Virus record (IMG/VR): IMGVR_UViG_3300050335_000039
Span: 14,811 to 78,810 of that record
Length of the DNA stretch: 64,000 nt
Source: a virus
Lineage: Duplodnaviria > Caudoviricetes
Reading direction: 5' to 3' (one strand)
Positions 1,834 to 51,300 of this stretch are shown one piece after another. A program made the translations under genes and the position numbers. Positions within the stretch are counted from its first letter, which is position 1; the number at the start of each line of letters is the position of its first letter. The notes under the pieces are model-generated. The model was given only the letters and a program-made list of their open reading frames with translations, had not been told where the DNA came from and did no database searches.

Positions 1834-1922
1834 TATTCATCACCATAAAAAAAATTTGGATGGCCTGACTCTCACCAGACTGTATTTTATTGTCCATTTA
1901 GAATCAATAATAGCATCCATAG

Positions 1923-1995
1923 TGGGCTAGGTAGGAGTCGAACCTACAACTCACTCCTTATAAGAGAGGCACTCTAACCATTGAGTTACTAGCCC
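1923..1995 (-). tRNA. tRNA-Ile (anticodon UAU), no encoded CCA
   Basis: GGGCTAG/CTAGCCC acceptor, AATGGTTA D-loop, CT-TAT-AA anticodon loop, GTAGG-TTCGACT-CCTAC T-arm. Confidence 0.85.
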
Positions 1996-3141: not shown

Positions 3142-3329
3142 TCCTCCAAGACTCCTTCCAATAACTTTTTATTTATATAATTGTTTGCAACAAGAAACTT
3201 TAAAATAAAGGATAAAGTCGGTATTCCAAATACAATAGAATCTTTTGTAGAAATAAAAAATTCATTATTTGTGTCTTGTCTAATAACTATACAATTAAGA
3301 TTAGGTATTTTCATTACCCTCAGAGACAT
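3129..3329 (-). CDS. Hypothetical protein
   Basis: ORF; ATG at 3329 preceded by AGAGG is preferred over the track start. Confidence 0.5.
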   Translation of the reverse strand: MSLRVMKIPNLNCIVIRQDTNNEFFISTKDSIVFGIPTLSFILKFLVANNYINKKLLEGVLEECQE

Positions 3330-10418: not shown

Positions 10419-10447
10419 ATTTTACACCATTATATACTAGCTGTCAA
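10419..10447 (-). promoter_or_regulatory. Sigma70-type promoter for the SSB operon
   Basis: TTGACA-17 bp-TAAAAT. Confidence 0.65.
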
Positions 10448-11471
10448 GGTCTATTTCTTCCAACTCAATATTATCTATATGAATATCATTCGTATTATTT
10501 ATAGCATTTAAACCACTAGTATATATTTCCTTATATAGATCGGGCTTTTCCTGTAAAAGCTCATACATCTTATTAAATCCTTGGGCTAGATTTGTTTCTC
10601 CAAAAACATAATATGGGCCCCTCTTTTTTAGTATTCCTATAGTTTCTGAAAAATGAATTAAATCTTTAATACTATCTATACCTTTACCAAATATAATAGG
10701 TAATATATAACTTCTAAATGGTGGAGCTAATTTATTTTTCTTAATGGTATATTTTGATATACTTCCAACAACTGTTTTACCAGTAGTAATTTGTTGTCCT
10801 TTCGTTAATGAAATCATAATGCTACTAAAATGTTTTAAGGCATGTCCACCTGGAATACTATAACCATGCGTATAACTTCCTACATTATCTCTAACTTGAT
10901 TTAGAAACACAAATGCTATATTATTCTTTCTAATATTAAACATGTTTCTTTTTAGAAATTTAGTAACATCCCTAGAAACAGAAGATACTTGTACATCACC
11001 AAAATCATCTTCTTTTTCTTTCTTTGTTACTATACTTCCTATTGAATCAAATACTATTAATCCAAATTCATTTGAATTAATACCAATTTCTGCTATTTCA
11101 AAGGCATGTTCAGAATCTTCTGGTTGAAATATTTTAATGTTATCCTCAGTAAAAATATTTTTACCTATAACCGCCCTGGCATAGTTATAGTCTAATTGAT
11201 TTTCCATATCAATATATAAAACCTTATCTCCACTTTGAATAGCATTTTTAGCTATACTTAAAGCTAAAGTGGTCTTACCACTAGATTCTGGCCCGTCTAT
11301 ATGTGTTATTCTTCCTTTTGGTATTCCTCCTATACCCAATGAAATATCAAGAGACGGTGTATCTGTAGATATTACATCTAGTTTACTTTTATCTTCTACT
11401 ACTAATAAATCTTCTACAAGATCACCAAATTCTTGTTCTATCATTCCCATAAATGAATTGTCTTTAGGCAT
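10437..11471 (-). CDS. recA: RecA/UvsX recombinase
   Basis: SLDISLGIGGIPKGRI, GPESSGKTT, FDSIGS, NQVR, GGHALK. Confidence 0.95.
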   Translation of the reverse strand: MPKDNSFMGMIEQEFGDLVEDLLVVEDKSKLDVISTDTPSLDISLGIGGIPKGRITHIDGPESSGKTTLALSIAKNAIQSGDKVLYIDMENQLDYNYARAVIGKNIFTEDNIKIFQPEDSEHAFEIAEIGINSNEFGLIVFDSIGSIVTKKEKEDDFGDVQVSSVSRDVTKFLKRNMFNIRKNNIAFVFLNQVRDNVGSYTHGYSIPGGHALKHFSSIMISLTKGQQITTGKTVVGSISKYTIKKNKLAPPFRSYILPIIFGKGIDSIKDLIHFSETIGILKKRGPYYVFGETNLAQGFNKMYELLQEKPDLYKEIYTSGLNAINNTNDIHIDNIELEEIDLDS

Positions 11472-14699: not shown

Positions 14700-15073
14700 C
14701 AAGCTATCAATTTATCAAAGCCTCAGCTATATAAATATAATGAGGCGCAATGCTACCCAGGTACAAGTAACATTGGGTTTATTTATGAGGCGCTACGTGA
14801 TTACGGTAGTAGCATACCAACATCGCTAGCCAACCTTTTTCAAGGAAGCCCAGGTGGTCGAGTTTACCTATAGGCTAGCAACCCACAAGACCGACGGGCG
14901 GGGACTCTCTCGCTAAAAAGCGAGCGTAGCATACCCCTTTCAGCCATCATTATATGATGACAGTCTTACTGTTAAATACAGTAAGAAGTCTGGGATTTTA
15001 TTTGTCGCAATCGCTTACCAAAAATGGTGTACCTGTTAAGCGTTTTAGGGTTATAGAGCGACTATGTTTTATA
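14700..15073 (-). ncRNA. Unidentified ~370-nt multi-hairpin RNA candidate
   Basis: No credible ORF, GC-rich versus flanks, at least 7 stems, a GAAA tetraloop and a G-U pair valid only on the minus strand, directly downstream of a promoter. Confidence 0.5.
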
Positions 15074-15872: not shown

Positions 15873-16562
15873 ATGGCTGATAGAAGATTAACTTTACCTG
15901 ATAAGAAAAAGATTAGAAATTTAAAGCAATATAAAAATATGAGCGAAGAAGAGTTTGAAGAAATATGGGAGAAAAAAATTACAAACTCTGTTTTTCCTAT
16001 CGAATTTGAGAAAAGAATTGATAGAAAATTAAAAGAGTTTGAAGATGATTATGATCTATCTGACTTAAAAGTAAACGATAAATTAGTATTAAGAGCTCTC
16101 ATACAAAGTATTTTAACTCTGGAAGATTTGGAGAAAGTTGTTTTTGAGATAAGAAAAGAAGGTTTTGATGATATAGATAATGTGTTGAAATTAGAAAAAA
16201 TAAGTACAGTTATGAATAAACTTCGTAACGATATTTCTAATATGCAAACTGATTTAAAAATAACTAGGAAGCACAGAAAAGGAGATAAGGAAACCAGCGT
16301 TATTAATTATCTAGAGGATTTAAAATTAAAAGCTAAACAGTTTTATGAGAGTAAAATGAGTTATGTATTTTGCCCTAAATGCAATATGCTTTTGGGTACT
16401 GTGTGGTTTTTATATCCTTATGGTAAAAATAAATTAATTTTTAATTGTGATAGAATTCTTGAAAATGGAGAAAAATGCGATGGAGTTGTAAATATCTCTA
16501 GTAAGGAATTAATGGAAAATCGTGGTACTAATAATTTAAATATACCGGAGAGTATGAGATAA
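15873..16562 (+). CDS. Hypothetical protein, possible terminase small subunit
   Basis: Helical/coiled-coil N-terminal part plus CPKC zinc ribbon; heads the operon leading to TerL; positional inference only. Confidence 0.35.
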   Translation: MADRRLTLPDKKKIRNLKQYKNMSEEEFEEIWEKKITNSVFPIEFEKRIDRKLKEFEDDYDLSDLKVNDKLVLRALIQSILTLEDLEKVVFEIRKEGFDDIDNVLKLEKISTVMNKLRNDISNMQTDLKITRKHRKGDKETSVINYLEDLKLKAKQFYESKMSYVFCPKCNMLLGTVWFLYPYGKNKLIFNCDRILENGEKCDGVVNISSKELMENRGTNNLNIPESMR

Positions 16563-48839: not shown

Positions 48840-49332
48840 ATGTGGTGCTTAGATGATAACACAGGTTTATTAATAGATGTGTTAGATTTAGAAGAGGGAG
48901 GAGCATCAATCAGAGTTACAATTACACTAGATAGATATTATACACAAATTGGTAAAATGGCAAACACGAGTGTAATAATGTCATAATCAAAGCGTTGTAA
49001 TGTTATACTCTACTGGAGGTAAACAACTACACATTATAAGTGAAATTTCCGCAGAAGGTACTTGCTATACAGTAACAAAAGAAGGGGTAATAACGGAACA
49101 GAAATAAATATAAAATGTCTAAATAGAGAATATACATACCAAGGAGAAAGTAAAGTATATCACACAAATGAGAACAGCTTTATTACCAGGAGGTACAGGC
49201 CCTAAATCTGGCGGAGGAGTTGCTAGAGAGGGGTTAGAGTGGATTCTAAAACCAAATACGAAATATTCTCTAACAAATATAAGTGGAAACACAATAAATA
49301 TAGGAATAATAAACAGCTTTTATGAAGTATAA
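48840..49332 (+). pseudogene. Frameshifted remnant of a phage gene
   Basis: GGAGG SD plus ATG; protein-like segments in successive frames ending LLPGGTGPKSGGGVAREGLEWILKPNTKY...FYEV-stop. Confidence 0.5.
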
Positions 49333-49364
49333 AAAAGAGAGATAAAAACTCTCTCTTTTTTATT
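49331..49364 (+). terminator. Intrinsic terminator ending the late operon
   Basis: AAAAAAGAGAGA-TAAAAAC-TCTCTCTTTTTT. Confidence 0.7.
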
Positions 49365-49368
49365 TAAT

Positions 49369-49499
49369 CCGATAAGGAAACCAAAAAAAATTTTTATAGT
49401 TAAATTAGAAAATGAATAGTAAAAACTGATAGGGAAACCGAAAATTAAGTTTAGAGCCTACAAATATACCTATAGACTAGAAATACCGATAAGGAATTC
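49369..49499 (+). repeat. Three spaced copies of CYGATARGGAAWYC
   Basis: CCGATAAGGAAACC 49369, CTGATAGGGAAACC 49426, CCGATAAGGAATTC 49486, each followed by an A/T tract. Confidence 0.65.
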
Positions 49500-49565
49500 A
49501 AAATTTAATTATAGAGTCTTTAGGGTACACACCGGCGGCAAATCGGACAAAAAGGGTCAGATTTG

Positions 49566-49664
49566 TGGCAGAAAGGGGGGGGGCTGGAGCAAAAAAAAGT
49601 CGCTCCCCTCACGGGGGGCGTGGATTGAAACTGGCAGAAAGGGGGGGGGCTGGAGCAAAAAAAA
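49566..49664 (+). repeat. 33-bp exact direct repeat flanking the CRISPR repeat
   Basis: TGGCAGAAAGGGGGGGGGCTGGAGCAAAAAAAA at 49566-49598 and 49632-49664. Confidence 0.9.
49599..49631 (+). CRISPR. Solitary type I-C-like CRISPR repeat (no array, no cas genes in window)
   Basis: GTCGCTCCCCTCACGGGGGGCGTGGATTGAAAC: GTCGC start, 8-bp stem CGCTCCCC/GGGGGGCG, TGGATTGAAAC end. Confidence 0.85.
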
Positions 49665-49695
49665 AGACCCTACGCTTACAGCATGGCGTAGGGTC
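49657..49695 (-). terminator. Intrinsic terminator of the minus-strand cassette
   Basis: GACCCTACGC/GCGTAGGGTC 10-bp stem followed by T9 on the minus strand. Confidence 0.85.
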
Positions 49696-49718
49696 ATCAG
49701 TGTATCCTGGCGAGGCGG

Positions 49719-49790
49719 CTACTCCGTTGCCTTGCCAAGGACTAGCAGAACAGCAGATGCAAGCAACAGAATAATTGGTATGACGTCCAT
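49719..49790 (-). CDS. 23-aa hydrophobic peptide
   Basis: MDVIPIILLLASAVLLVLGKATE; ATG overlaps the TAA of the upstream gene. Confidence 0.5.
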   Translation of the reverse strand: MDVIPIILLLASAVLLVLGKATE

Positions 49791-50149
49791 TACTGCTCCA
49801 AAATGCCGTCAACACTGACCACAGGCGATGACTGCGGGTACTGTATCTTGTTAACGATCAAATCACAGTACTCTAGCAGTACGGGCAGAGTCATGGTGCG
49901 TAATAAAACTTGCCCGTCGTACACGTTAGCTACATAGTCAATATCCGATGCCTTGCCGTCAGACAAAAGGTCGCAGTACGTCTGTACTATCTTAAAGCTC
50001 TCCAGCACGCTCTGGCCGAATGGATTACTCTGTGTTACTGTCTGGAGCGCAGACTTAAAGTTTGCGTACTCTCCATCCAGTCTAACCTCTGATATTTTTT
50101 TATCGCTACTTACCTTCATTAGTTTTGTAGTTTTAGTTTTTTCTGACAT
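49790..50149 (-). CDS. Hypothetical protein (119 aa), atypically GC-rich codons
   Basis: ORF with GAGG SD, own promoter and terminator. Confidence 0.65.
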   Translation of the reverse strand: MSEKTKTTKLMKVSSDKKISEVRLDGEYANFKSALQTVTQSNPFGQSVLESFKIVQTYCDLLSDGKASDIDYVANVYDGQVLLRTMTLPVLLEYCDLIVNKIQYPQSSPVVSVDGILEQ

Positions 50150-50253
50150 TTTTGATCCTCTTTCTCTCATTTAAGGGATGAGTCCCGTATGGTTTTTTTT
50201 AATCTATGTGTTTCCGGTAAATAATATTTCATTTTAATTTACCTCACTTTTTT

Positions 50254-50282
50254 AAAATAGCATACTCCATTGATTTTGTCAA
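50254..50282 (-). promoter_or_regulatory. Leftward promoter flanking the repeat array
   Basis: TTGACA-17 bp-TATTTT with TG extension. Confidence 0.7.
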
Positions 50283-50331
50283 TAGTTTTTTCGTTTTAAT
50301 TTAATTTTTTTCTTTTTTTTCGGATTCCGTG

Positions 50332-51229
50332 AGCCTGGATGGATAGCCTGGATAGCCCGGATGGATAGCCTGGATAGCCTGGATGGATAGCCTGGATGGA
50401 TAGCCTGGATAGCCCGGATGGATAGCCTGGATGGATGGCCTGGATGGATAGCCTGGATAGCCCGGATGGATAGCCTGGATAGCCCGGATGGATGGCCTGG
50501 ATAGCCTGGATGGATAGCCTGGATAGCCCGGATGGATAGCCTGGATGGATAGCCTGGATGGATAGCCTGGATAGCCCGGATGGATAGCCCGGATGGATAG
50601 CCCGGATAGCCCGGATGGATAGCCTGGATGGATGGCCTGGATGGATAGCCTGGATGGATAGCCTGGATAGCCCGGATGGATAGCCTGGATGGATAGCCTG
50701 GATAGCCCGGATGGATAGCCCGGATGGATAGCCCGGATGGATAGCCTGGATAGCCTGGATGGATAGCCTGGATGGATAGCCTGGATAGCCCGGATGGATA
50801 GCCCGGATGGATAGCCTGGATAGCCCGGATGGATGGCCTGGATGGCCTGGATGGATAGCCTGGATAGCCCGGATGGATAGCCTGGATAGCCCGGATGGAT
50901 AGCCTGGATGGATAGCCTGGATAGCCCGGATGGATGGCCTGGATAGCCTGGATAGCCCGGATGGATAGCCTGGATGGATAGCCTGGATAGCCCGGATGGA
51001 TGGCCTGGATAGCCTGGATGGATAGCCTGGATAGCCCGGATGGATAGCCTGGATAGCCCGGATGGATAGCCTGGATGGATAGCCTGGATAGCCCGGATGG
51101 ATGGCCTGGATGGATAGCCTGGATAGCCCGGATGGATAGCCTGGATAGCCCGGATGGATAGCCCGGATGGATAGCCTGGATGGATAGCCTGGATAGCCTG
51201 GATGGATAGCCTGGATGGATAGCCTGGAT
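50332..51229. repeat. Irregular tandem array of about 78 RGCCYGGAT(GGAT) units
   Basis: Entire stretch parses into GGAT, AGCCT, AGCCC and GGCCT blocks; count by hand. Confidence 0.95.
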
Positions 51230-51271
51230 ATATATTAAATGAAGAAACTGTGAACATACATAGTACCATAA

Positions 51272-51300
51272 TTGACATAGGATAGACTATGTGATATACT
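51272..51300 (+). promoter_or_regulatory. Rightward promoter flanking the repeat array
   Basis: TTGACA-17 bp-TATACT with TG extension. Confidence 0.8.

Follow-up and report, generated by a model that had tools for sequence, protein, structure and literature searches.

The element described here lies in a 78.8-kb virus record of about 28% GC (IMG/VR record IMGVR_UViG_3300050335_000039), in which the window, that is, the whole stretch of DNA that was analysed, spans 64,000 nucleotides (positions 14,811 to 78,810 of the record). The record encodes terminase, capsid-like, polymerase and endolysin genes, and its phage traits are Firmicutes-like, with an endolysin of the GH25 type and a Clostridium phage as the best match of the capsid-like protein. 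A gene for a UvsX/RecA-like recombinase (10437-11471, minus strand) adjoins those for a DnaB helicase, SSB and DNA polymerase, and together they make up a recombination-replication module of the phage's own. Its single tRNA gene (1922-1995, minus strand) was called as tRNA-Tyr, with the unusual anticodon ATA. Relatives of the phage with an empty site were not found by blastn against cultured phages and plasmids or by exact scans of viral contigs for the junctions and the repeat. Nor did relatives emerge when the PAS protein nearby served as query for a search of loci at the protein level, and identity look-ups of three neighbouring proteins gave matches from the same sample only.

The element stands in an intergenic space on which two transcription units converge (Table 1). 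One is a plus-strand late operon containing the GH25 endolysin, the PAS protein and small ORFs, and the other is a short cassette on the opposite strand. The AT-rich direct repeats to the left of the element share a core motif that recurs at 16284 and could be binding sites or iterons; a role as a phage promoter motif was rejected because the core is not enriched elsewhere in the window. From approximately 49518 to 50050 the DNA is compositionally foreign to the phage, with a GC fraction of about 0.5, and codons 41-126 of ORF126, the larger gene of the cassette, have a GC3 of 0.61, against 0.14-0.22 in ten other phage genes. Over the first 40 codons GC3 is 0.28, so that the gene looks chimeric, and this suggests a recombination joint inside ORF126 at approximately 50050. 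Searches with ORF126 yielded no family, no homologue and no usable structural neighbour, and its sole weak match, P0002, was discarded as a repetitive translation. Between the cassette and an early promoter lie some 900 bp of tandem 9/13-nt units with 58% GC (50332-51230), which interrupt both a second JGI contig and a Logan contig; an apparent 325-aa ORF at 50301-51278 was rejected as a gene, being part of this tandem repeat.

Table 1. Features in and around the solitary repeat (positions in the window)
Feature	Position	Strand	Description
Intrinsic terminator of the late (lysis) operon	49329..49363	+	Upstream of the X-R-X unit; 14-bp perfect inverted repeat followed by a T-run; -14.7 kcal/mol
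Three AT-rich direct repeats	49366..49516	+	About 34 nt each, 57-60 nt apart; fill the intergenic space upstream of X1
X1, left copy of the duplicated 33-mer	49566..49598	+	Presumed original protospacer; 100% identity to 49632-49664
R, exactly one type I-C CRISPR repeat unit	49599..49631	+	Single exact copy
Stem-loop of R	49601-49620	+	Part of the type I-C repeat
11-nt handle of R	49621-49631	+	Part of the type I-C repeat
X2, right copy of the 33-mer	49632..49664	+	Its A-run and A49665 form the U-tract of the minus-strand terminator
Terminator hairpin of the cassette	49666..49695	-	10-bp stem, 10-nt loop; -18.3 kcal/mol, then U9
Counter-oriented cassette	49719..50282	-	Promoter, orphan ORF and 23-aa hydrophobic ORF
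23-aa hydrophobic ORF	49790-49719	-	ORF call
Orphan ORF (ORF126)	50170-49790	-	126 aa; start probably at the second ATG (119 aa)
Sigma-70-like promoter of the cassette	50282-50254	-	Predicted

At the centre of the unit is a CRISPR repeat (R) made up of a 5' stem-loop and an 11-nt tail ending ATTGAAAC. Folding of R by itself gives a stem of 8 bp closed by a 4-nt loop (-15.8 kcal/mol), and its match to the Rfam family CRISPR-DR9 is sub-threshold (22.1 against 45 bits). The first-pass annotation of this DNA had reported a lone repeat of type I-C and no cas genes, and both points are borne out. A second copy of R is absent at up to 3 mismatches from the window and from the 78.8-kb record, the string of R matched in 0 of 100 shuffled sequences, and genes for Cas5d, Cas1 and Cas7 were not found in the whole record, which is estimated to be 87% complete. 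Solitary CRISPR repeats are known from viruses, where some of them are RNA anti-CRISPRs (Racrs), and R, which is solitary, virus-borne and not accompanied by cas genes, is a member of this class of viral solitary repeat units (SRUs).

Comparison with other genomes sustained the assignment to type I-C and, as the annotation had proposed to check, located arrays that share the repeat. Three Chloroflexota MAGs, those of a Caldilineaceae bacterium, Litorilinea and an Anaerolineales bacterium, have arrays whose repeats are the same as R letter for letter, and exact matches were also found at 53 metagenome loci. At L028, an array with R comes immediately after genes for Cas3, Cas5d, Csd1 (Cas8c), Cas7, Cas4 and Cas1, and because this array adjoins a I-C cas operon R is a genuine repeat of type I-C. 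The digester study that contains the phage also contains arrays with the identical repeat. The bases that flank R in arrays vary freely, which means that the phage insert corresponds to one repeat unit, no more and no less. Most of the spacers in these arrays have a length of 33-35 nt (407 of 1592 measure 33 nt and 544 measure 34 nt). The contigs that carry R have 46-55% GC and come from Chloroflexota, against the 28% GC of the phage.

Several arrays with R (L008, L027, L030, L032, L034 and L057) contain adjacent identical spacers, 12 cases of which about 6 are unique, and these show repeat-mediated duplication of units inside arrays. Solitary exact copies of R also occur elsewhere. One of them (L044:931-963), on a metagenome contig of 55% GC, follows a TATAAT at a distance of about 45 nt and overlaps the start of a DUF4007 reading frame; this repeat may be a crRNA-like regulatory RNA that belongs to a defence locus. 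Another (L007:628-660) stands about 85 nt upstream of the gene for an 883-aa protein with a DUF6371 match and has no duplication in its flanks.

The first-pass annotation overlooked that R is bordered on both sides by the same sequence. A perfect 33-bp direct duplication abuts both ends of the repeat, and the unit therefore reads X(33)-R(33)-X(33). Beyond this block the bases differ between left and right, so the duplication is exactly 33 nt long; in arrays with R, spacers of this length and of 34 nt are the most frequent. Before the left copy stands TTG (49563-49565), which departs from the I-C PAM TTC in one base. Since the A-run of the right copy serves as the U-tract of the neighbouring terminator, we consider X to be native phage or cassette sequence and not imported array DNA.

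The same layout recurs in other viral contigs. Our census applied degenerate I-C repeat patterns to viral contigs and kept 99 non-redundant, internal and truly solitary copies. In L085, a perfect 34-nt duplication abuts the repeat, and the left copy comes directly after TTC, the canonical I-C PAM. This copy lies inside an IS3-family transposase ORF that the insertion truncates, which looks like the work of a scar and not of a designed gene. Downstream of the insertion, the IS3-type transposase (7901-8728 of L085, minus strand) has in-frame stops and a frameshift, as in a decaying copy. In L207 the duplication measures 35 nt and has diverged (25/35 identity); it lies at the 3' end of a 444-aa ORF, with the left copy after TTT. 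A fourth case is L116, where the duplication, of about 34 nt, has likewise diverged (24/34). In this phage, L085, L207 and L116 the duplications are 33, 34, 35 and about 34 nt long and the repeats 33, 32, 33 and 32 nt, so that the length of the duplication tracks that of spacers and not that of the repeat. In the three unambiguous cases (this phage, L085 and L207) the left copy has TT at -3 and -2, which is the PAM side in the I-C orientation, and the product of the background TT frequencies is about 8e-4. Chimeric-flank controls, in which left and right flanks were drawn from two different loci, gave 0 scores above zero in 1760 pairings when the duplication was to be at least 20 nt. In a second round that admitted duplications of at least 12 nt, a score of 4 was attained by 0.35% of 1980 controls, and the few scores above it most likely come from a locus paired with its own right flank.

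The two copies in L207 (11552-11654) encode nearly the same eleven C-terminal residues through different codons, with 10 differences in 35 nt that include a switch of Ser from AGT to TCG, and the stop codon of the left copy takes its last letter from the start of the repeat. Such recoding could reflect evasion of a guide aimed at the carrier itself, or the copies could stem from two relatives that had diverged. The census also returned two short abutting duplications, of 15/15 nt in L072 (repeat at 3296 on the minus strand) and 13/14 nt in L130 (1651-1682), the footprint of which is unlike the spacer-length one and recalls in size the target duplications of casposons.

Judging from these sequences, the element is best read as a young solitary repeat unit, the putative scar of a DNA exchange between the phage (or a cassette borne by it) and a host I-C array, and we would give this reading a probability of roughly 0.55. 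X would be a protospacer that some I-C host had acquired as a spacer. As the only phage homology in the cell, the spacer could then have paired with phage DNA, either in a crossover (a Campbell-type entry through X) or by invasion of an end broken by CRISPR. The intermediate could have been resolved through the two identical repeats that flank a spacer, by inter-repeat crossover, or alternatively by two-ended repair synthesis in which the extended ends anneal within the repeat. Either route would leave the left flank of the phage, X, one whole repeat, X and the right flank of the phage, and both would thus yield, with no extra assumptions, an insert of one exact repeat together with a duplication of spacer length. 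We infer the existence of the matching spacer, the route of recombination and the time and place of the event.

Several findings argue for such an exchange. The duplication abuts exactly one repeat unit and has TT on its 5' side, the third base being G here and not C, the layout recurs in other viral contigs, arrays with the identical repeat occur in the same study, and the phage encodes a UvsX-like recombinase. Spacer-protospacer recombination has a laboratory precedent (Varble et al. 2019, summarised in PMC8616872), and excision through alternative repeats takes repeat-spacer units into phage DNA (10.1101/2020.10.09.333658). Against the scar reading, the TTG before X1 calls for a PAM-escape mutation or a non-canonical acquisition, and the evidence for the structure comes from one sample, with no relatives in the collections that would allow an empty-site comparison. 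X was not found as a spacer among 986 unique spacers (1592 in total) from 56 loci with R, in a single metagenome scan or in the 401 genomes of the phylum that were searched, and the spacers of these arrays contained no convincing phage matches. Productive infection of a Chloroflexota host by a phage of 28% GC is doubtful. Given the GC mismatch between the phage and the carriers of R, we also consider an earlier event, which may have taken place in another element of higher GC before the 530-bp block entered the phage.

The first-pass annotation had proposed a candidate RNA anti-CRISPR instead, laid out as a complete crRNA mimic that could sequester host Cascade subunits. On this view Cas5c would cut a plus-strand transcript at the base of the stem, and the handle, the 33 or 34 nt that follow and the hairpin would bind up Cas5c, Cas7 and Cas8c. 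Its geometry was described correctly, with the handle, the next 34 nt and a hairpin of 10 bp (49666-49675/49686-49695) all in place, although what these parts are turns out differently. The supposed spacer is a second copy of a 33-mer of the phage itself, and the supposed 3' hairpin is the terminator of the convergent cassette, which speaks against a mimic by design. In favour of an active RNA, the repeat is a genuine I-C one, identical to those of co-occurring arrays, a G-U wobble in the stem is consistent with an RNA of plus-strand sequence, and the small orphan cassette nearby could be an anti-defence locus. Some viral solitary repeats are Racrs, RacrIC1 of type I-C among them (PMC10651486). 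Racr candidates in that work were chosen for a promoter within 250 bp (PMC10651486), whereas here, in agreement with the annotation, no plus-strand sigma-70-like promoter was found in 49000-50400, that is, within 600 nt, in a search for sites from which phage-specific promoters may differ. The unit is placed past the terminator of the late operon and faces a convergent one. For the canonical stem of R, thermodynamic prediction gives a pair probability of 0-0.02 in all the transcript windows examined, whereas for the same repeat in 60 array contexts it gives a mean of 0.83 and a median of 0.92; in the phage, the G9 runs of both X copies are predicted to pair with the C-rich arm of R. Because the spacer part equals X1, a processed RNA would be a guide directed at the phage itself and not an inert decoy. 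Identical repeats do occur in the same study, yet their carriers are Chloroflexota and the phage is Firmicutes-like with a mismatching GC content, and in L085 the same layout disrupts a gene. On these predictions the unit is probably not an active RNA anti-CRISPR in its present context, and we regard a functional Racr as unlikely.

A different source of a direct duplication is off-target integration by Cas1-Cas2(-Cas4), in which X would have served as a pseudo-repeat, cut with a stagger of 33 bp around a 33-bp insert, and would now stand as a target-site duplication. Such integration is documented in the literature, and in this phage the duplication does equal the repeat in length (33 and 33) and the insert is spacer-sized. 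There is also a weak resemblance between the 3' halves of X and R (p of about 0.003-0.03 for the local score), and an AT-rich, leader-like stretch lies upstream. However, the insert must be exactly one CRISPR repeat, whereas PAM-guided capture inside an array would be offset, and we know of no prespacer pathway that yields exactly one repeat from end to end. The equality of lengths does not extend to L085 and L207, where duplications of 34 and 35 nt accompany repeats of 32 and 33 nt, and the TT on the PAM side of the left copies would be unexpected for a pseudo-repeat. An integrase origin thus seems to us quite improbable.

It is very unlikely, in our estimation, that the unit is a hijacking guide, in which R and X2 would form a one-repeat crRNA gene that arms the I-C Cascade of the host against rivals that keep TTC before X, the carrier being spared by its TTG. 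The handle and the following 33 nt have the geometry of a guide, the PAM position of the carrier is off-consensus, and virus-borne mini-arrays are known in interviral conflict (PMC8616872). The left and right copies in L207 differ almost solely at synonymous sites, as escape from a guide predicts. Yet a guide meets the same obstacles of expression and folding as an anti-CRISPR RNA, and the left copy in L085 has retained a perfect TTC and matches perfectly, a combination that would be suicidal were the guide active. The search for relatives of the phage, among which such rivals might be sought, returned none.

Two further arrangements were considered. That X is the repeat of a phage mini-array and R its spacer was rejected, as the borders of the insert coincide with those of the host repeat unit. 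It is unlikely that the whole of X-R-X came from an array with a duplicated spacer, since X holds the U-tract of a terminator and remnants of outer repeats are absent.

The data on the sample itself, which are assembled contigs from one sample rather than raw reads, indicate that the X-R-X structure is probably real. The identical unit is present in a second JGI contig of the same sample. Among the Logan k=31 contigs of the source run, a 93-nt unitig that covers X-R-X has a depth of 170, the 33-nt unitig of X has 363, and the phage flanks have 132 and 310; the contigs break at X, as they should at a repeat. The depth ratio of X to X-R-X is 2.1, which fits one loop per phage genome. True repeat-spacer-repeat contigs with R have a depth of 3.7 in the source run and 3-12 in sister runs, and the words across the X/R junctions are about 45 times deeper than the sole true array contig with R in the source run (3.7). 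It is therefore highly improbable that the unit is an assembly chimera, in which a loop of the de Bruijn graph would have joined the phage protospacer X to a host repeat-X-repeat sharing the 33-mer: X and R are each 33 nt long, near common k-mer sizes, host arrays with R occur in the same sample and all data come from that sample, but both junctions, X to R and R to X, run at the depth of the phage (170x) and not at that of true arrays (about 4x), in a ratio that fits one loop in every phage genome, and the layout recurs in two JGI contigs and in the unrelated contig L085.

If the scar reading is taken one step further, units of the form protospacer-repeat-protospacer may represent the birth stage of viral solitary repeat units, a tentative generalization for which we would give slightly less than an even chance. 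An element targeted by CRISPR would recombine with the spacer that targets it, or repair itself from it, and leave with one host repeat. The newborn unit would encode a guide against its own carrier, and selection would then erode the PAM or the left copy, as the TTG in this phage and the near-saturated synonymous recoding in L207 might illustrate. The right copy would decay too, and the bare repeats that remain would be open to co-option as Racrs or regulatory RNAs.

To our knowledge, no earlier work documents the route by which a virus comes by an exact copy of a host repeat, and the element described here, together with its sister cases, preserves the junctions of such an acquisition event. 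These junctions point to spacer-protospacer recombination, with the CRISPR memory itself as the homology that moves array DNA into phages, and they offer a testable route of origin for Racrs and for the mini-arrays of phages. They also define a signature that can be searched for in all CRISPR types: a duplication of spacer length, a PAM on its left and one repeat. If the birth-stage reading holds, natural phage genomes contain datable records of physical recombination between phages and arrays. A caution also follows from the case, namely that a perfect crRNA-like geometry can stem from history and not from design.

With the viral SRUs and Racrs described so far, RacrIC1 included (Camara-Wilpert et al. 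2023, PMC10651486; Faure et al. 2019, cited in PMC8616872), the element shares a lone I-C repeat in a virus that lacks cas genes, near identity to the repeats of real arrays and an adjacent cassette of small uncharacterised genes. It differs from them in that no promoter was found, terminators converge on it from both sides, its hairpin is predicted not to form in context, and a perfect duplication of the carrier's own DNA, of spacer length, flanks the repeat. In the literature searched, we did not find a spacer-length self-duplication around SRUs, its recurrence with a PAM-side signal or its implication for their origin. The solitary I-C repeat is thus of a known kind, and the spacer-length self-duplication with its PAM-side signal appears, from the sequences compared, to be the new aspect. 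The mini-CRISPR arrays of viruses (Medvedeva et al. 2019, cited in PMC8616872) are likewise host-type CRISPR material in a virus, unaccompanied by cas genes. Those arrays are built as repeat-spacer-repeat; the phage unit has the reverse arrangement, spacer-repeat-spacer, with a single repeat and with 'spacers' that match its own carrier.

Nivala et al. are said to have described, in 2018, non-canonical (off-target) integration by Cas1-Cas2 that gives rise to 'neo-CRISPR' units. Like these, our element is a CRISPR-sized insert within a CRISPR-sized direct duplication outside an array. In neo-CRISPR units, however, the duplicated part is a pseudo-repeat and the insert a foreign spacer, whereas here the insert is a true repeat and the duplicated part is spacer-like in its length and in its PAM side.

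The closest parallel in mechanism is spacer-protospacer recombination (Varble et al. 2019, as summarised in PMC8616872; 10.1101/2020.10.09.333658), where CRISPR homologies of about 30-35 bp likewise act as crossover sites between phage and array. In the second of these studies the pieces move by aberrant excision of a prophage that integrates at repeats and carries spacer-repeat units (10.1101/2020.10.09.333658). Taken together with such excision, the likeness lies in entry through one repeated element and exit through another, which moves pieces of the array. Those systems (PMC8616872; 10.1101/2020.10.09.333658) are laboratory ones of types II and III in staphylococci and streptococci, and involve transducing particles or attP-linked spacer-repeat units; what we describe here is, instead, a natural I-C unit of protospacer, repeat and protospacer that is fixed in an uncultured phage.
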